Of a DNA stretch of 26,397 nucleotides, positions 1 through 19,779 are shown piece after piece. The position numbers were made by a program, and so were the translations under genes. How positions within the stretch are numbered: position 1 is the first letter of the stretch; every line of letters begins with the position of its first letter. The notes beneath the pieces are model-generated. The model was not told where the DNA came from and ran no database searches. It saw only the letters and a list, made by a program, of their open reading frames with translations. Source of the stretch: Candidatus Auribacterota bacterium (GTDB taxonomy: Bacteria > Auribacterota > JACPWU01); the NCBI GenBank assembly GCA_041906865.1, contig JAYRIK010000087.1, forward strand, positions 1 to 26,397, given 5' to 3'.

Positions 1-3000
1 ATGGGCATTTGCTAAATCGACCAATCGATATAACACCCCTTTTTGAAATTTAAATTTTTCTTTTGTTTTTAACTCCCCCTCTGAAGGAATGTCTTCATTC
101 GGAGACATTCCTTCCTCCATCGGCATCACTGCCCCAATCAATTGCACCCGATCCGTAAAAGGAGTCCCAGTAATCGTCTCCACATGCACATTCTTTTTCT
201 CATCTTGATATTTCTGAATAGCTTTTTCCAAATTGTCTAAACTGTTAATAGGTTGAATAAAAAGGGTAGGAATATCACTCTCAAAAGACCGAGAAACTTT
301 GGAATAGGTATCATCTTCATCTTCAAGAGATCTCATTATCCATCTTCCTTCTAAGTCATGCTTAGAAGCAATTAAGCATAAGAAATCCTGAGAATCTAAA
401 TAAGCATCTAAATGAGAAATTCCTCTCTCTCCCAATATTTTTTCATTAAACAGTGTTTCCTCCATTCCCACCCAAGCTCTTATTCCTGTATAACTTCCAG
501 AAACAAGAACAAACTCCCCTGTCGAATTCAACAAACATTTTACATCCACTTGTTTATCGTGATCAGTTTCTAATAATTTTAAATCCCTTATGGAATACTT
601 ACCTGATACCTCTTCTTTATACACCTTCAACAATCCATATCCACTTCCACAGACAAAAATTAATTTGCCTTCTTTATCAAGTAACGCATCTAGAGACATC
701 GGGTCAGATATACCGCCTATTGTCGAAACATCCAAACAACGACTTCCATTTTCTTTTAGAATATTTATTGTTCCTCCACTTTCTAGCACTAAAACGATAA
801 CTTGTCCTGTAGGCGTCAATAGAATTTTATACTTGCTCCATCCTCCAGGAGCAGGTTTAAACCCTATATTTCTAAGGACAAACTGACCTTGTGTATCTTC
901 TTTTAATAGAGACATTTCTCCTGAGATATCTTCTCGGTAAACAATGTTTAAATTTCCATTTGCATCAAAACATGCATCAAATTCTAAATTTGAACCCTTT
1001 TTAACATGAATTCTTTCAAGAATTTTTTCTCTAAATTGACGGGCTCCCTGTTTTTCAAAAAGATGTATTTTCCCATTTTCATCTGTTCCAATAATCGTCA
1101 AACGATTAGCATGCCTTAAAACTTTGACATGAAGAAGCTTGCAAGCTAACCATTGAGTAGATTGATTACTGTTTGGATAAAACATTCCTATTCCCTCTTG
1201 GAGATTAGCAGAGAAAAAGATAATAGGTCCATTCTCTCCAGAGATAATCTGATCATACCCTTGCATAGGAACAAAATTTTTCTTTTCAGTCGCAGTTATA
1301 ACCTTCTGTTCCAATCCACTGATTTTATGCTCAAAATTTCGAACAGAAACTGTTCTGGGTTGCATCTGGACTTCTTTGATGTCACTCGGAAGAAGTTGAA
1401 CCATTTGAGAGTTCTTATCATAATCTGAAGAAGGCATCATATCTCGATAAATCGTTTCTGCTCTTCTCCAAGCTTCTTCTAGGGCGGCCTGTCGATTCAT
1501 CGTTTTCACTAAAATAGAAGAATGTTTCACAAATTCTTCACAGAAGCGTCTCTGTTCTCGAATCGTAATCGTATAAAGGGCTGGATCCTCAGAACTATCG
1601 CGAAGAGGTTTCAGCTCCTCTTTCATTTTTTGATGAAATTCGCGTAGACGTTTAGCAACTTCTCTTTTTTCAGAATCTGTTAAAGAGGAAGCATCCAAAG
1701 CAGGCAAAGAAGCAATACTTTTTGCTAAAGATTTTTTGTTAATAAATTTTCGAAGTGCATCTCCCAAAAGACCTTTATAAGGATGGGCTGGATCTTGCTC
1801 TCGTAATTTGTCTGAATCTGGATAATTCTCTGGATAAATCTTCTGTTGTAAGAGAATCGCCTTTTCATGACCTAGAACAGGGCAAAGAAATTCATGCAAG
1901 AAATATTCTTCGACAAGTGTGTTATGAGGAATAGCTTTTAACTCTCGAATCAAATCTTCTGCAAAAAAAGTTCTTTTTTCTCTGGGAGAGCCCTTTCCTA
2001 AAAAATAATCTTCTTCTGCTTCGACAATACCCTCAAAAACACGAATCTTATGCTGCCCGTTCTTCAGATTGTTTAATTGGCGTCTGAATTCTTTTTTCTT
2101 GTCTTGTGGAAATTCTGGATGATTCACAATAGATTCTAAAATTTGTTCAATAATAAATTGATCATTCGAATCGATCTCGTGTTTCTCAATTTCATCTTTT
2201 TGAGCCTTAAAAATTCTCGCTGAAACTTTTCCTTCACGACTTTGAATAAATCCATCGGACCCATCTAAAAATCTAAGATAAAATCTTTCATGACGCCTGA
2301 CCATACGACCCAAAGAAAATTTCTTCCGAATAAATCTTCTCCCTGCTCTTCCCAATTCAGTCCTTTTGACTGAATTTTCAAGTAACAATGCAACTTTATT
2401 TACAAATTCATCTGTATCTCCTGGATTTACAAGATAACCTGTCTTTCCATTTTCTATAGCTTCAGGAATACCTCCTTTGTTATAGGCCACTACAGGCTTT
2501 TGCATCGCCTGAGCTTCTAAAAGCACCCGTGGCAATCCTTCATCTTCTTGAGTAGGGCATACAACCACTATGCTTCTTGCATAATAATCTCTCATCTCCT
2601 CTCGAGAAAGATGTCCTGTTAAAACGATATCCTCTTCCAAACCATAAGATTTTGCTAAAATCTTGATTTTCTCGTCTATTCCCGAAGAGAAAATACCTCC
2701 AGCAAATACAAGTTTAAACCTGAATCCTTCGTCTCTCAGTCGCTGAGCAATTTTTAAAAATTCCAACTGTCCTTTTTCAGAATAAATTCTTGAGGGTAAA
2801 AAAATCACAGGAATATTTTCTAAAATAGAAATCCTTTCAGGATGAGCATCAAGAGGATTCCAAAAATCCATATCTACTCCATTTGAAAGATTCACAAAAC
2901 GAGAACGAGTATGTAGAGGAACATTTACTGAAGAGACACCTGTAACACCATCTACTGAATCAAGCATCTTTCTTGGATAATGCCGCTCTATGGAAGAATT

Positions 3001-5511
3001 CCCCCCATGATGCTGAGCCAAACAGGGAATTCCTTGTTCTTTCACCCGTTGAACAAGCTCTACTCCATTCACAGCTCCTAAAGAATGAATCATCACTAAA
3101 TCAACAGAATATTTTTTAATAATATTTAGAAGACTTTCTATCTCTGCTCCTGTTCCATAGAATCTTCTAAAAGCCGGCAGATTAGACAAAACAGGAGAGA
3201 ATGGCGTTGTTAGAAGCCAACTACGGAGAGAACCCTTGATACCTGATCGATTTAACCATTTAACAACTTCACTATACAATCTATTTTCGGCCTTACTCCA
3301 AGATCGTGAATTAGAAAAATCTTTTCTCAAAATAGGGACTAAAATAAGTTCTCCTTTCCCTACTTTTATTCTTTTCTCTTTTTCATTAGGATCGGTTGTC
3401 AAATACATTTGAACAATGGTCATGCGATTTCGTTCAAGAAGCCCTCGATTCAAAGCATCCAAATGAGTTTGAGAACCTCCTACAAGATCTATCGTATCTT
3501 GAAAAACACGAAAGATTGTTTTCCCATCTAGAGGACCGGGCCTTGATTCTATCTTCTCCAATTTCTTCTGTGCAAAATCAGATAAAGGATCATTTAAGGT
3601 TTTTAAAACACGAACAACTAATTTCCCTAGTTCACGGTCTTTACGGATTAACTGAACAATATCCTTTTTAGAAAGGATATTTCCTGATGGCTTTACTCTA
3701 GCAACATCCAAATCTTTGAGAGTTTCCTCAACTACACGCTTTATAAAATCACTTGCACCTGCGCCGTGATTCTTCTGCCAATTCATAAGCCAATTACGAA
3801 CAAACTCTTTTCCATATTTTGAAGCTCCAGAACGAGATAATATCTGAGCAAATCTTTTGAGATCTCTTTCCTGAACTTCGGGTCGGTTTTCTCGAGCAAG
3901 TTCATCGAAAAGATAGGAAAGAGCCAACTTATCGTCATGCGAGGGGCGTTGTGCGTCGTATATATTCGCATGACGCAAGCCGCTTGACGCATGACGGTTT
4001 TTCAATTCTTCCATCATTAACTGTTGATAAACCTTTCCATCTAAATCCGTAGAAGTTTTAGGAGTTAAAACCGCATAACCTAAATCTTCTTTTTTCAATC
4101 GCTTCGTGACAGAAGATGTGTGAAAACCGCCTGTGATTAATACCGTTACCCGTTTCCCGTTCGCCGATTTATTCTGAGCGATACTCTCTAATGTTTTCTT
4201 CATCATTATTTCATCTCTTTTGCAGGCAAGTTCATAAAAGCGTTGCGCTAAAGAAAAAAGAGACTTTATTTTGTCATCCCCCGATGTAACATCGGGGGAT
4301 CCATTCACATTTTTATCTTTTTTAAATCTATCCCACTCCTCTCTTGAAGCTTCCAAACGTAATATTTTTTCTAAAAGAATTTCTTTTTGTCTCCTCTCCA
4401 AAAGATTTTTGGCTTCAGGAGTATTTGCTAACGATACTTTCAAAGAATCCACCCACTCTCCCAATTCACGAATCATGGCTTCATGATCAAGAGATGTTTC
4501 TTGCTCAAGAAGACCAACATACTTTGTTAACTCAGAAGATCTTTCTTTTAAAACACCTGCTTTCCCTAATAAAAAGTGAAAATATTCCAAGCTAGGGATT
4601 TTTTCAAGTCGATACTCCAAACTCTTTTTCACAAGAAGCGCTAAATCATTTTTAGATGAATGATGCGTCAAATCTTCTAAAAGCGCCTGTGCCTCTTTTT
4701 TTACCTTTTCCCTTGATAAAGATCTCTGAAGATTCAAAATGTGTATATAAGAATTAAGATTAGGAGAATTAGAAATCAGAGAAGTCTGATGTTCGACGTT
4801 CTGTTTTAAGAGATCTTGAATATATTCATCAAATTTTATTTTTCTATCCTGATAAGATCTCTCCTTTTCAAAGATTTCTAAAAGTTGTTTCGAAAAGATT
4901 TTTTGAGCAATCCTGAAAAAATCTTTATCAACTTTTGCTAAAAAAGAATCCATCAGACTTTTCTGATCCATCACTTCTTTAAAAGCCTTCAAATTTTCCT
5001 GATATAATTTTTCATCTTCAAGCCCTACAATGCGAACAGGAATTTTTGAATATTGTGTGATAGCAAAAAATTCTGCTGCACTTAATCTACCTTCTCTTAA
5101 AAAAGTGAGTGCTGCCTCTTCTTTCAATCTTTGATCAGGGAATGAACCAAAAAGACTCGTGTCTATTTCCCCCTTAGCTCCTTCAACTAAAACTAAAAAC
5201 CCGTCATGCGATAAAACATTCGAATCATCATGTAATTTTTTCCATAGCGTTTCTAAAATCTTCGATACATTCATTTGTGCTTCAGAGTTACAATGAAGAT
5301 CTTGAATATGAATAACAAAAGGACTATTTTGATGATTACTTTTGGAGAACTCTCCAACATGAGCAAATGGAGATATTGCTGAGTCTAAAAAAGCTTCGTT
5401 TATGAATGGGATAGTGCTTGAAGCCGGAGCAGAAAAAGAGGGTGAAAACTCTCCAGAATGGACGATTAAAGAAATAGCTAAAATTAAAGAAAAACCTTTT
5501 CGAAAAGCCAT
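1..5511 (-). CDS. Giant multidomain exported protein, 3'-truncated by the window edge (>=1837 aa): signal peptide, Omnitrophota-type header domain, GT4 glycosyltransferase, HExxCxxxxH region, beta-rich/propeller-like region
   Basis: Manual translation of the minus frame from ATG at 5509-5511 (AAGGAG upstream) to base 1 finds no stop. N-term MAFRKGFSLILAISLIVHS; motifs IHIQDLHCN (aa 67-75), LVEGAKG (E110), KRDEIM (R432), LITGGFH (458-464). GT4 motifs GGSQTH (678), SRIYSEKG (907-914), EGLPRVLLEA (EX7E, E991-E999), PVVAYNKGGIPE. HEFLCPVLGH at 1206-1215. Confidence 0.93.
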   Translation of the reverse strand, partial: MAFRKGFSLILAISLIVHSGEFSPSFSAPASSTIPFINEAFLDSAISPFAHVGEFSKSNHQNSPFVIHIQDLHCNSEAQMNVSKILETLWKKLHDDSNVLSHDGFLVLVEGAKGEIDTSLFGSFPDQRLKEEAALTFLREGRLSAAEFFAITQYSKIPVRIVGLEDEKLYQENLKAFKEVMDQKSLMDSFLAKVDKDFFRIAQKIFSKQLLEIFEKERSYQDRKIKFDEYIQDLLKQNVEHQTSLISNSPNLNSYIHILNLQRSLSREKVKKEAQALLEDLTHHSSKNDLALLVKKSLEYRLEKIPSLEYFHFLLGKAGVLKERSSELTKYVGLLEQETSLDHEAMIRELGEWVDSLKVSLANTPEAKNLLERRQKEILLEKILRLEASREEWDRFKKDKNVNGSPDVTSGDDKIKSLFSLAQRFYELACKRDEIMMKKTLESIAQNKSANGKRVTVLITGGFHTSSVTKRLKKEDLGYAVLTPKTSTDLDGKVYQQLMMEELKNRHASSGLRHANIYDAQRPSHDDKLALSYLFDELARENRPEVQERDLKRFAQILSRSGASKYGKEFVRNWLMNWQKNHGAGASDFIKRVVEETLKDLDVARVKPSGNILSKKDIVQLIRKDRELGKLVVRVLKTLNDPLSDFAQKKLEKIESRPGPLDGKTIFRVFQDTIDLVGGSQTHLDALNRGLLERNRMTIVQMYLTTDPNEKEKRIKVGKGELILVPILRKDFSNSRSWSKAENRLYSEVVKWLNRSGIKGSLRSWLLTTPFSPVLSNLPAFRRFYGTGAEIESLLNIIKKYSVDLVMIHSLGAVNGVELVQRVKEQGIPCLAQHHGGNSSIERHYPRKMLDSVDGVTGVSSVNVPLHTRSRFVNLSNGVDMDFWNPLDAHPERISILENIPVIFLPSRIYSEKGQLEFLKIAQRLRDEGFRFKLVFAGGIFSSGIDEKIKILAKSYGLEEDIVLTGHLSREEMRDYYARSIVVVCPTQEDEGLPRVLLEAQAMQKPVVAYNKGGIPEAIENGKTGYLVNPGDTDEFVNKVALLLENSVKRTELGRAGRRFIRKKFSLGRMVRRHERFYLRFLDGSDGFIQSREGKVSARIFKAQKDEIEKHEIDSNDQFIIEQILESIVNHPEFPQDKKKEFRRQLNNLKNGQHKIRVFEGIVEAEEDYFLGKGSPREKRTFFAEDLIRELKAIPHNTLVEEYFLHEFLCPVLGHEKAILLQQKIYPENYPDSDKLREQDPAHPYKGLLGDALRKFINKKSLAKSIASLPALDASSLTDSEKREVAKRLREFHQKMKEELKPLRDSSEDPALYTITIREQRRFCEEFVKHSSILVKTMNRQAALEEAWRRAETIYRDMMPSSDYDKNSQMVQLLPSDIKEVQMQPRTVSVRNFEHKISGLEQKVITATEKKNFVPMQGYDQIISGENGPIIFFSANLQEGIGMFYPNSNQSTQWLACKLLHVKVLRHANRLTIIGTDENGKIHLFEKQGARQFREKILERIHVKKGSNLEFDACFDANGNLNIVYREDISGEMSLLKEDTQGQFVLRNIGFKPAPGGWSKYKILLTPTGQVIVLVLESGGTINILKENGSRCLDVSTIGGISDPMSLDALLDKEGKLIFVCGSGYGLLKVYKEEVSGKYSIRDLKLLETDHDKQVDVKCLLNSTGEFVLVSGSYTGIRAWVGMEETLFNEKILGERGISHLDAYLDSQDFLCLIASKHDLEGRWIMRSLEDEDDTYSKVSRSFESDIPTLFIQPINSLDNLEKAIQKYQDEKKNVHVETITGTPFTDRVQLIGAVMPMEEGMSPNEDIPSEGELKTKEKFKFQKGVLYRLVDLANAH
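83..114. repeat. Perfect 12-bp inverted repeat inside the giant CDS
   Basis: GAAGGAATGTCT (83-94) / AGACATTCCTTC (103-114), 8-nt loop. Confidence 0.6.
3933..3996. repeat. Inverted heptamer repeat (RTGCGTY / ACGCATR family), in-frame in the giant CDS
   Basis: CGTCATGCG..GCGTTGTGCGTC..CGCATGACGCAAG..ACGCATGACG; same units at 22975-23020 and 26114-26185. Confidence 0.75.
4273..4303 (+). repeat. REP-like palindrome family A (GTCAT...ATCCA, 31 nt), in-frame in the giant CDS
   Basis: GTCATCCCCCGATGTAACATCGGGGGATCCA, 11-bp perfect stem; same length and ends as the reverse complement of 6868-6898. Confidence 0.8.
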
Positions 5512-5621
5512 GCTTTGGATATAGCTCCTTTTTGGAAAGACAGGTAATATTGTAGCTCATTTTTAGCACAATTTCAAGTTTTAATTATTTTTTATAACTT
5601 ATTTGCATAAAGAATCTTAAA

Positions 5622-6881
5622 ATGATAATTAATTTTATAAACCTCCTTAAATCTTCTGCTTCCTTACCTTGTCTCAAAAAAGCTCTAAAAACTCTTCAAA
5701 TTCACCACAAAAAATATTTGATTCTCTTAAAAACGGAAGAAATAATTCTTTCGCTCAATGAAGTTGCACAACTTTGGTTAAAACCAAAATCTCCCGTTCG
5801 AAAAGAAGCGATAAAATTGCTATCGTTGACAACAGGAGGCTCTAAAGAAATCATTTCTGAAGGACTTGATTTAGCTTTTCAAGAAGTCACTCAAAAAAAA
5901 TTAAAAAAAGCATTAAAACAACTTGAGAACTTTCCTCGGCCATGCGTATCTACTTTCATTTTTGCAGGAATTATTCCTACTCCTATGCTTTTCGATATAT
6001 TTCTTGGGCTTCTTTTAAAATCTTCTGTCTTTGTGAAATGCCCTTCACGCGCTCCTCTCTTTCCTATTCTGCTAATACGCTCGATTCAAAAAGTAAATCC
6101 AAAACTTGGAAAATGTATTACGGCTTTTCATTGGCCTGGAGGAAAATCGAATTTTGAAAAAGATTTATTTAAAAAATCTGATCTTATTCATGCTTATGGA
6201 ACTGATGAGACGATTGAAAAAATTTCAGAAAAAATCTCTTCTTCAAAAACTTTTTTGTCTTTTGGACATAAATTAAGTTTTAGCATTATTTTAAAAGAAC
6301 ATATGACGAAACAATTTATAGACTCGCTCACTCAAAAAGTTGCTTACGACATTTCTCTCTATGATCAGCAAGGTTGCATGTCTCCCCATGTAATCTATGT
6401 ACAAAAGGGAGGTAATATTTTAGTTCATGATTGGGCAAAAAAATTGGCGGATGCGATGCAGAAAATTCTAAAAAAACTTCCTACTGGAAAAATTTCTTTG
6501 GGCGAAGCCTCCCAAATTCATCAAATTCGAGGGCAAACAGCACTATCTTCAGATAAATCCTGTATTTCAAGTCATCCTACCCCTGAGTGGACAATCATTT
6601 ATGAAGAAAATCCCTCATTTCATGCATCTTGTCTCAATCGAGTGATTTTTGTAAAACCTTTTTCGAATCTAAATGAACTTCATAAAATTTTAAAAAAAGA
6701 AAAGGGAAATTTCCAAGCGCTTGGTTTTTCTACAGATGCGAAGAAGAAAAATTCGATCAAAGACTTTGCAAGAAGTTTAAAAGTTCCCATGCTCCAGCAT
6801 ATTGGGGAAATGCAGAAACTTTCTTTTGAACAGCATATTGAGGAAAGACTAGAGAAATTTAAAAAAATGGATTCCCGATAA
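5622..6881 (+). CDS. Acyl-CoA reductase, LuxC family (ALDH-like fold)
   Basis: Motifs AYGTDETI, SFGHKLSF and YDQQGCMSPH (putative catalytic Cys) match LuxC-type reductases. No luxE/luxD in the window. Confidence 0.8.
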   Translation: MIINFINLLKSSASLPCLKKALKTLQIHHKKYLILLKTEEIILSLNEVAQLWLKPKSPVRKEAIKLLSLTTGGSKEIISEGLDLAFQEVTQKKLKKALKQLENFPRPCVSTFIFAGIIPTPMLFDIFLGLLLKSSVFVKCPSRAPLFPILLIRSIQKVNPKLGKCITAFHWPGGKSNFEKDLFKKSDLIHAYGTDETIEKISEKISSSKTFLSFGHKLSFSIILKEHMTKQFIDSLTQKVAYDISLYDQQGCMSPHVIYVQKGGNILVHDWAKKLADAMQKILKKLPTGKISLGEASQIHQIRGQTALSSDKSCISSHPTPEWTIIYEENPSFHASCLNRVIFVKPFSNLNELHKILKKEKGNFQALGFSTDAKKKNSIKDFARSLKVPMLQHIGEMQKLSFEQHIEERLEKFKKMDSR

Positions 6882-17761: not shown

Positions 17762-17978
17762 ATTATTAACTCTCCTTTCAAGTTCGAGTTTCATCTCTCT
17801 TAAGAAGCATGAAGCATGCCAAAACACAAAAAAGACATTTAATTATATTTTAAATGATTGGAATAGAAGTAGTTACAACTTCACAAAAAGACAGCGGCAA
17901 CTCTACCTTCTTTCTTTCTATTCTCCATTTTGAAGCATTTTTTTCGATGAAACTGCTTCAAAAAAATTTAAATAAATT

Positions 17979-18077
17979 TATTCTTCGAGCGAAGTCGATT
18001 CATCGGCTAAGTCGAGAAGATGCCATTCTAATCAGGATAAGATATTAGAAGAACTTTCGTTCTCGACAAGCTCGAAC
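17979..18077. repeat. REP-like family C inverted pair (TTCGAGC..GTCGAGAA)
   Basis: TATTCTTCGAGC..AGTCGAGAAG (17979-18019) plus reverse unit TTCTCGACAAGCTCGAAC (18060-18077); same ends as 19709-19767. Confidence 0.75.
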
Positions 18078-18139
18078 AATAAAACTAGTATTACAAAACT
18101 ATTTCTAATTCTTAGAACCATTTGAAGGAGAATTGAGGT

Positions 18140-19699: not shown

Positions 19700-19779
19700 A
19701 AAATGAGACTTCTCGACTCCGCTTCGCTCTGCTCGAAGAATAATACTGTTCGAGCGCAGTCGAGAACATTACTCATTTT
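19700..19779. repeat. REP-like family C pair with 8-bp inverted ends, between sigma and anti-sigma genes
   Basis: AAAATGAG (19700-19707) / CTCATTTT (19772-19779) bracket CTTCTCGACT..GCTCGAAGAATA and GTTCGAGCGCAGTCGAGAAC. Confidence 0.75.

Follow-up and report, generated by a model that had tools for sequence, protein, structure and literature searches.

Bacteria of the widespread, uncultured Omnitrophota are very small and are believed to live on other cells; what stands out most about them, and is least understood, is the oversized genes that they carry. Giant multi-enzyme proteins of this lineage have been published as the 'Archaeovorin' type (West-Roberts et al. 2023, bioRxiv 10.1101/2023.11.21.568195), as 'multi-enzyme metabolic clusters' (bioRxiv 10.64898/2026.06.07.730766) and as giant open reading frames (ORFs; Seymour et al. 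2023, PMC10066038). Such proteins are described as poorly conserved, fast evolving and prone to assembly breakage; many are predicted to be membrane-anchored with the bulk of the chain in the cytoplasm (bioRxiv 10.64898/2026.06.07.730766), their N-terminal regions 'generally lack identifiable domains' (10.1101/2023.11.21.568195), and a host-dependent or predatory lifestyle is proposed for the lineage (PMC10066038). Here we describe a gene of this kind on the minus strand of a 26,397-nucleotide stretch from a Candidatus Auribacterota bacterium (GenBank assembly GCA_041906865.1, contig JAYRIK010000087.1). This stretch, hereafter the window, is the entire contig C87 of a 284-contig metagenome-assembled genome (MAG; 1.89 Mb, 82% complete).

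The encoded protein has a leader and a TIKI-like head, a family 4 glycosyltransferase (GT4) domain and a zincin-like module and, most likely on a second contig (C157), two AAA_5 units and a VWA domain. It thus has the published plan of a signal peptide or transmembrane (TM) segment followed by many unrelated enzyme domains. Shared with the published giants are the lineage type (our label 'Omnitrophota-type' was taken from the source names of homologues), the signal peptide, and the presence of glycosyltransferase group 1, peptidase-like, methyltransferase, HAD and phosphoglucomutase domains in one chain. The published giants have at least 10 or at least 30 thousand amino acids (kaa; threshold at least 10,000 aa or a gene of more than 90 kb). 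The protein described here, with probably at least 4005 aa, and its orthologue in a sister genome, with 1111 aa, fall below that threshold; the same head opens frames of 10–24 kaa in related genomes.

The reading frame and its parts

The initial annotation had proposed an uninterrupted minus-strand frame over the first 5.5 kb, and such a frame was recovered: window 1–5511 is a single open frame of 1837 codons, with an ATG at 5511 and no stop up to base 1. Comparison with the sister orthologue (81% identity) gave a ratio of nonsynonymous to synonymous substitution rates (dN/dS) of 0.22 for the whole frame, with 0.25 for the head, 0.20 for the linker and 0.15 for GT4. A Pfam GT4 match lies within the frame, a promoter-like site and a GGAG 14 nt ahead of the ATG precede it, the start and first residues are the same in the sister orthologue, and composition is uniform along its length. 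Window 1–5511 is a genuine coding frame under purifying selection. Housekeeping neighbours (AhpC, an isocitrate-type dehydrogenase and an aminotransferase) have dN/dS values of 0.02–0.03 against the sister genome, so the gene is constrained, yet its protein sequence is evolving about 10 times faster than housekeeping proteins. The plus-strand ORFs inside 1–5511 (83–115 aa) lie opposite a frame shown to be coding and are therefore shadows, as had been supposed. Because the frame is open at the contig end, the gene is truncated by the assembly. The parts of the gene are as follows.

5549..5577, minus strand: promoter-like TTGAAA-17-TACAAT (agrees with the consensus at 10 of 12 positions; consensus agreement only)
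5446..5511, minus strand: start codon and Sec-type leader (aa 1–22), with two K/R, a hydrophobic core and small residues after the core
4012..5364, minus strand: family-defining head (aa ~50–500), from alignment, AF2 model, structure matches and conservation in 171 members
3442..4011, minus strand: linker (aa 501–690), without Pfam match or paralogue
2227..3441, minus strand: GT4 (GT-B) glycosyltransferase (aa ~691–1095), from PF00534, PF13692 and NCBIfam GT4 families
2227..2250, minus strand: breakpoint relative to the sister orthologue, where protein homology stops after ...FLDGSDGF (aa ~1095), at the end of GT4
1717..2214, minus strand: mini-zincin-like module (aa ~1100–1265), from recurrence, AF2 model and structure matches
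1255..1716, minus strand: helical region (aa 1266–1419), with long helices, lower model confidence and no family match
307..1254, minus strand: beta-rich region (aa ~1420–1735), with six D/N-x-x-G-x-h-x-h-h repeats 40–52 aa apart
1..306, minus strand: last ~100 residues (aa 1736–1837), with weak matches only

Window 1824–2017, which includes the zincin-like motif, is identical to a 194-nt contig from an unrelated sludge metagenome run of a different study (X2), and the organism or gene segment is therefore present in a second sample. The LuxC-like neighbour (window 5622–6881, plus strand) evolves as fast as the giant gene (dN/dS 0.285, 79% amino acid identity to the sister), and LuxC and LuxE are kept apart by the giant gene in both genomes.

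The head domain and its family

Alignment with the sister orthologue and with paralogues delimited the predicted header of about 450 residues at aa ~50–500. In the databases, 28 proteins of 1,000–3,100 aa matched the query only at aa ~60–500, with 23–29% identity; their other Pfam domains were protein kinase, PEP-utilising, FHA, phosphoglucomutase, metallophosphatase, HD, methyltransferase, HATPase, DUF89 and transglycosylase. The genome itself contains 19 more head-bearing ORFs (20 in all), of which 17 are truncated by contig ends, and these therefore represent 17–20 genes. The paralogues sit on separate contigs with unrelated cargo, namely UDPGP, a PGK-like stretch, a transglutaminase core, HAD, GT4 and methyltransferases of three types (AprA-type, PrmA-like and class-23), and nearly all of those with an intact start have a basic-then-hydrophobic leader.

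A head profile was built from 40 heads and scored against 1.84 billion cluster representatives, resulting in 10,442 matches, 7,496 of them at E<=1e-30. Among the best 150 of the 10,442, which range from 675 to 7,165 aa, the head was at the extreme N-terminus in every case. Within the phylum, the family was found in 20 of 79 genomes, and these 20 group by taxonomic family; a first look gave 24–51 head candidates per family-bearing genome (at most 17 per genome were scored). Frames that begin with the head reach 24,620 aa, and one of those in the sister genome measures 16,184 aa. These data show that a head with interchangeable cargo is the plan of a very large Omnitrophota-type modular protein family. 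The earlier idea of a fixed header followed by variable enzymes thus stands, with 17–20 head-bearing paralogues of differing cargo in this genome and 10,442 representatives in all. At the read depth of 4–8x, the long and repeat-rich head genes are where the assembly breaks, and MAG-based counts and lengths for the family are therefore underestimates.

A repeat of ~90 nt was also observed in frame in loops of four head paralogues (C164 aa ~470–495, C67, C21 and C51), where it encodes IYSSSE...SR(R/Q)ARTVK. Many other copies are present in the genome, including intergenic ones at window ~17974–18084 and ~19704–19743, with none within 1–5511. The repeat looks like a small element of the miniature inverted-repeat transposable element (MITE) or repetitive extragenic palindromic (REP) kind, tolerated within coding sequence.

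For structural assignment of the head, an AlphaFold model (pLDDT 82.6, pTM 0.77) was compared exhaustively with known structures using VIA-align. The model consists of an alpha/beta core (strands 65–71, 105–109, 159–164, 455–461 and 478–484) split by a helical insertion of ~270 aa. TIKI/ChaN/Ere-type structures accounted for five of the top nine matches, with ChaN (2g5g) first at Z 8.8, followed among these by EreC (7.8), HopBA1 (7.7) and the Ere-like 2qgm (7.2) and 2rad (6.9). AlphaFold-DB clusters matching the head at E ~1e-25 are auto-annotated as TraB/GumN or 'Tiki superfamily ChaN', and automatic UniProt annotation likewise labels some head relatives TraB/GumN or ChaN.

The conserved residues of the head are D71-x-H73, E110, E147, E165, R432 and GGFH at 461–464. 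Across 171 members, D71 is kept in 162 (with N in 8), H73 in 169, E110 in 171 and H464 in 170, and E147, E165 and R432 are likewise kept (162–171 of 171). In the AF2 model, D71-x-H73, E110 and H464 each stand directly after a predicted strand. In the TIKI superfamily, as characterized in PMC6254334, a parallel-sheet core goes with a 2His/2Glu set in which E-x-H is followed after ~28 residues by a Glu and, farther along, by a distal His. The residue order in the head matches this set with Asp in place of the first Glu, so that both the fold and the motif of the TIKI/ChaN/TraB/Ere superfamily are found, whereas a match to its curated models is not.

Based on the alpha/beta fold matches and the conserved D-x-H...E...H set, the head is probably a divergent, putatively active member of the TIKI/ChaN/erythromycin-esterase superfamily. 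Several observations weigh against this assignment. The Z values are just modestly over the tool's stated background of 7–8; the best Foldseek match in the Protein Data Bank (PDB), again EreC, is weak (E 0.056); and no Pfam or NCBIfam match to the superfamily, with its curated models PF01963, PF04187 and PF05139, was obtained at E<=0.1. A sequence-profile search of the PDB with the head family profile also returned nothing meaningful. As judged by model and alignment, the header is nevertheless predicted to be more than a neutral one, namely a TIKI/ChaN/Ere-fold domain with an intact catalytic-type residue set.

Modules behind the head

The GT4 domain of the initial annotation, which is probably complete, was confirmed by PF00534 (E 8e-34, 117.1 bits against a cut-off of 26.4), by PF13692 (102.4 bits) and by an E-x7-E motif, EGLPRVLLE, at aa 991–999 (window 2515–2541). 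E-x7-E is the defining motif of retaining GT4 enzymes. The N-terminal GT-B half was matched by PF13439 at 19.4 bits, under its cut-off of 28.5. Residues 659–1082 are 38% identical to another GT4 fusion, and NCBIfam full-length GT4 models align from about aa 792–870.

Directly behind GT4, the metal-site-like motif noticed earlier proved to be real: HEFLC...H, at aa 1206–1215, is the conserved core of a recurrent domain found in other genomes. Copies were identified in 6 other genomes (12 copies) and in 4 head-family proteins (5 copies); one frame of 3,773 aa carries three and one of 6,885 aa carries two. Across 16 copies, E1202, H1206, E1207 and H1215 are invariant, Cys1210 takes the place of the second His of HExxH in most copies, and a KG.LG.ALR motif follows at aa 1246. 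The AF2 model of the module has pLDDT >90 over residues 1–165, and in the structure comparison three minigluzincins ranked highest, namely selecase at Z 9.3 with 106 of 109 residues, projannalysin at 8.4 and proabylysin at 8.2, ahead of Ste24, ZMPSTE24, BlaR1 and BepA (Z 6.2–7.0). Selecase was also the top Foldseek match (E 0.22, probability 0.85). Neither a Pfam match nor a PDB sequence-profile match was obtained for the module; a Pfam 'Unstab_antitox' hit at aa 1120–1155 (E 7e-6 when the fragment was searched by itself) occurs in only 1 of 16 copies and was dismissed as a chance match of a short helix.

The compact zincin fold is therefore recognizable in the model, while the canonical HExxH with a downstream Glu is lacking, which counts against a zincin reading, and for that reason the module was not classed as a minigluzincin. 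A putative metal site of the His/Cys/His type, with Glu as the general base, can reasonably be expected by analogy with peptide deformylase, whose metal is bound by Cys/His/His. In another genome (G019, contig C35, L007), the module is directly followed by a domain of the glucosamine-6-phosphate isomerase/6-phosphogluconolactonase type (Pfam E 1.9e-5), an arrangement consistent with a module placed between cargo enzymes.

Further along, the predicted beta-rich region was recovered with six blade-like repeats spaced 40–52 aa apart and is probably a beta-propeller. In a language-model atlas look-up with aa 1400–1837, PLL/BNR/FG-GAP propellers led at scores of 0.83–0.86, which are below 0.9 and give a lead only; the same protein atlas was uninformative for aa 1095–1400 (score 0.76). 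The last residues, aa 1736–1837, matched the middle one of the AAA units on C157 in BLASTP (E 0.03), contig C50 weakly and giant frames of genome G027 at E 3e-4, and may possibly belong to a degenerate AAA_5-type unit. A word-indexed search of a large database with aa 1095–1837 found no homologue.

Comparison with the sister orthologue (P0002, GCA_964640155.1) places a sharp boundary at the end of GT4. The sister protein has 1111 aa; past the breakpoint it consists of 17 unrelated residues and then a stop, one base from a convergent LuxE. Its upstream neighbours NDK, aminotransferase, dehydrogenase, AhpC and LuxC are shared with the window, and a polysaccharide cluster follows LuxE. Nucleotide homology to the sister reaches window 2247 and restarts, in the expected orientation, at position 6528 of C157. 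An independent assembly, a Logan contig of the source run (X1; activated sludge, depth 4–8x), spans window 1104–3000+ with zero differences, so that the junction at window ~2247 was not created by the assembly.

On C157, positions 2–6505 form a 5'-open frame of 2168 codons, which ends 12 nt short of the convergent LuxE. In view of the synteny with the sister and of two facing open frames in the required orientation, C157 most likely carries a further part of the window gene, which would then encode a single chain of at least 4005 aa. The suggested continuation past the contig edge is accordingly rated very likely, and what probably lies there is not an early stop but 2168 further residues with domains of their own. 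Since the sister protein stops after GT4, at least 2,900 residues have, on that continuation, been gained or lost at a domain boundary between congeneric genomes.

The C157 frame comprises seven beta-hairpin repeats of ~39 aa, an AAA-type P-loop unit, a weak midasin-lid match, a degenerate unit, a clear AAA_5 unit, an HELRH motif and a VWA domain. The first AAA unit has the Walker motifs GEPGGGKTD and VFVIDEG. The clear AAA_5 unit matches PF07728 (E 5.5e-12, 46.3 bits against a cut-off of 22) and has GETGVAKTT and VVILDEAN. The VWA match is marginal (PF00092, E 4e-5, 24.3 bits against a cut-off of 23.8), with its metal ion-dependent adhesion site (MIDAS), DVSRS, intact. The HELRH motif stands at aa ~1400 of the C157 frame, between the AAA_5 units and VWA, and is without Pfam support; HELRH with VWA recalls the putative metallopeptidase-plus-VWA partners of MoxR ATPases. 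A repeat of ~130 nt seen beside the sister gene (L003:8412–8546), of a family different from the ~90-nt one, has 30 copies on many contigs of the present 1.9-Mb MAG; none of these falls within a long open frame, which makes all of them look intergenic, and the repeat has no relation to the protein.

Export, competing readings and known systems

A signal peptide had been predicted at the N-terminus, and by simple rules one is present: a hydrophobic 10-mer (Kyte-Doolittle 2.93) is preceded by two K/R, and the absence of Cys from the leader means that there is no lipobox. Leaders of the same kind were found in 143 of 165 family members, with A-x-A-type sites after the hydrophobic core in several to many paralogues. 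With K/R before the core and acidic residues after it, the positive-inside rule puts the bulk of the protein outside, and no second or internal TM-like segment was found in the window protein beyond the leader. The relatives ChaN, TraB/GumN and Tiki are mostly extracytoplasmic. Based on the fit of the leader, the lack of a TM segment and the location of these relatives, we infer that the protein is exported by Sec.

We put the chance at a little better than even that this is an exported modular protein with a Sec leader, a TIKI-type head and interchangeable cargo. The precursor would be exported through its leader. The head, a predicted active hydrolase common to all members, would then act either on the protein itself, in maturation or processing, or on a substrate in the envelope or a partner cell, and the cargo would be active on the surface of the cell, or inside a partner or prey cell as the source of nucleoside diphosphate (NDP)-sugar and ATP. 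The zincin-like modules within the chain may be what cleaves it between cargo blocks, and self-processing by them or by the head would be an attractive possibility. In this member, the order would be head, GT4, HExxC...H module and probable beta-propeller, then, on C157, beta-hairpins, two AAA_5 units, HELRH and VWA/MIDAS, and the AAA_5-VWA part may be a MoxR/midasin-like engine, as judged from its analogues.

Several observations speak against this reading. The leader was judged by simple rules; GT4 and AAA_5 require NDP-sugars and ATP, which an exported protein would not be expected to find outside a cytoplasm; an RSELR inter-module linker motif is absent from both the C87 and the C157 part; and the gene stands between LuxC and LuxE in a polysaccharide cluster that the sister genome shares, a position from which GT4 would be expected to take an ordinary part in envelope biosynthesis. 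Either the protein enters the cytoplasm of another cell, or it stays in the producing cell and works for the polysaccharide cluster next to its gene. Entry into another cell would fit the host-dependent or predatory lifestyle proposed for Omnitrophota (PMC10066038).

The non-exported option amounts to a cell-bound enzyme of envelope biosynthesis, whose N-terminus would be an anchor or not serve export at all, whose bulk would be cytoplasmic, and whose GT4 would serve the neighbouring polysaccharide genes while the other modules scaffold or regulate. The locus fits such a role, as the gene stands beside an aminotransferase, a GT2, a Wzx-like flippase and three GT4 genes, in the same arrangement in the sister. 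The paralogue kinases and methyltransferases need cytoplasmic cofactors just as GT4 and AAA_5 do, and a membrane anchor with cytoplasmic bulk is what the preprint cited above notes as the prediction for many Omnitrophota giants. The charge distribution of the leader and the A-x-A-type sites in many paralogues point the other way, and there is no second TM segment to bring any part back to the cytoplasm. The annotated relatives of the head (ChaN, TraB/GumN) are mostly extracytoplasmic, and the ~20 paralogues with unrelated cargo sit on separate contigs. A cell-bound biosynthetic role is thus unlikely, although it deserves to be taken seriously.

The exported modular reading can also be carried further, to the delivery of a polyprotein. 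Here a Sec precursor would be matured by its own invariant TIKI-type head and HExxC modules into separate enzymes that are passed to, or act in, a host or prey cell, the AAA_5-VWA tail would be an attachment or unfolding engine, and cargo blocks would be swapped whole, at domain borders, between close species as an arms-race repertoire. The host or prey cytoplasm would supply NDP-sugars, S-adenosylmethionine and ATP, and a block swap is seen in the difference between 1111 and at least 4005 aa. We regard this extended version as improbable.

Exported or not, the chain might be shorter than proposed: the window ORF could stop soon past the edge, at ~1.9–2.5 kaa, with C157 carrying a separate AAA_5-VWA gene or a third contig lying between. 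Some sequence is certainly missing, as the window ends in what resembles the middle of an AAA-type unit and C157 starts in beta-hairpins. No overlap and no bridging contig was found between C87 and C157, which share no k-mers; the Logan contigs of run X1 end at window base 1, and no relative was recovered when metagenomes were scanned with the final 278 residues. In the absence of a bridging read or contig, a stop codon could lie in the gap. A C157-like tail was found in 0 of the 172 other family proteins fetched, so that a head with an AAA_5-VWA tail is an uncommon architecture, and the same kind of tail occurs without the head on C255. Set against these points, which all weigh on the side of two genes, are the facing open frames in the orientation that synteny needs, with nothing in the sister between the gene stop and LuxE, and an uninterrupted 6,914-aa ORF of the sister genome. 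This ORF starts with a leader and a head (E 6e-112), and its AAA_5-AAA_5-VWA tail is collinear with that of C157 at ~30% identity, which makes a single C87–C157 chain more credible. A split into two genes is therefore quite improbable. The C255 frame of the same genome (159–14621, plus strand; at least 4821 aa, 3'-open) combines a start resembling a leader with an AAA_5-AAA_5 tail that is paralogous (28% identity) and, having no TIKI-like head, belongs to a different class of giant protein.

That window 1–2247, past GT4, is a chimeric assembly or a decaying, functionless fusion is very improbable, despite the entire lack of a post-GT4 part in the nearest orthologue, the depth of just 4–8x and the fruitless word search with aa 1095–1837, because the independent assembly crosses the junction without differences, 743 + 2168 codons are stop-free, composition is uniform, the module keeps all its invariant residues, recurs in 6 other genomes and is modelled at pLDDT >90, and the Walker A/B and MIDAS motifs on C157 are intact.

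The architectural interpretation is supported by these results, and the role as effector or surface weapon inferred in the initial annotation is at most a candidate one: export itself is deduced from leader features, and a gene placed inside a conserved polysaccharide/LuxC-LuxE cluster may equally have a housekeeping function in the envelope. If one exported hydrolase head is common to thousands of proteins, from 0.6 to more than 24 kaa, the entire class can be approached through that domain, which would offer a profile for finding and counting members, a catalytic set to mutate, and a domain small enough to express and assay. A block of at least 2.9 kaa that this gene has in one of two congeneric genomes and lacks in the other, and whose junction coincides with a domain boundary, amounts to a natural experiment that shows the growth or shrinkage of such proteins. 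A recurrent zincin-like module between cargo blocks is a concrete candidate for the idea that the chain is cut into pieces, and ATP- and NDP-sugar-dependent enzymes behind export signals bear on whether these organisms inject enzymes into other cells.

Of the known systems, the TIKI/TraB-PrgY/ChaN/Ere superfamily (EreC 6xcq, ChaN 2g5g, Bcr135/136, HopBA1 5t09, MARTX RRSP; PMC6254334) shares with the head a parallel-sheet alpha/beta core and, in the same order and at strand ends, an acid-x-His, a Glu ~30 residues on and a distal His. The head differs in its ~270-aa helical insertion, in Asp for the first Glu and in the lack of a Pfam match, and it forms the constant N-terminus of thousands of long modular proteins, whereas its TIKI relatives are stand-alone enzymes or toxin cargo. 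With the minigluzincins (selecase 4qhf, projannalysin 4jix, proabylysin 4jiu; M48/M56 relatives Ste24, BlaR1, BepA), the module shares a compact fold, in which 98–106 of ~105–109 residues were aligned at a root-mean-square deviation of 2.6–2.9 with the invariant H-E on the equivalent helix. Its motif is HExxC...(4)...H rather than HExxH with a downstream Glu, there is no sequence-level relation, and it is embedded in giant proteins up to three times, whereas minigluzincins are free-standing.

What C157 has in common with MoxR-VWA pairs and midasin is a pair of AAA_5 units with Walker A/B, a weak match to a midasin-type lid and a C-terminal VWA with DxSxS; in C157 the parts are fused to each other and, with the link made by synteny, probably to an exported enzyme chain, there are 2–3 AAA units, and HELRH lies between AAA and VWA. 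The likeness to MARTX and other modular multi-effector toxins, a long exported chain with interchangeable enzyme modules and built-in protease domains, is a functional analogy only. A TIKI-fold domain, RRSP, does occur in MARTX (PMC6254334), but the window protein has no sequence or architecture homology to MARTX, no RTX repeats and no cysteine protease domain, and its TIKI domain is the head, not the cargo.

As far as searched by term, the two preprints contain no mention of a TIKI-like head or an AAA_5-VWA tail, nor did a zincin-like module turn up in the sections covered, though that term itself was not searched, and West-Roberts et al. 2023 (10.1101/2023.11.21.568195) make no mention of paralogues; Seymour et al. 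(PMC10066038), searched for general terms only, mentions neither the head, the zincin-like module nor the AAA_5-VWA tail. Giant multi-enzyme Omnitrophota proteins are already known, and what is added here is the anatomy of one locus, the gain or loss of a block at a domain boundary, the zincin-like module and the probable C157 tail.

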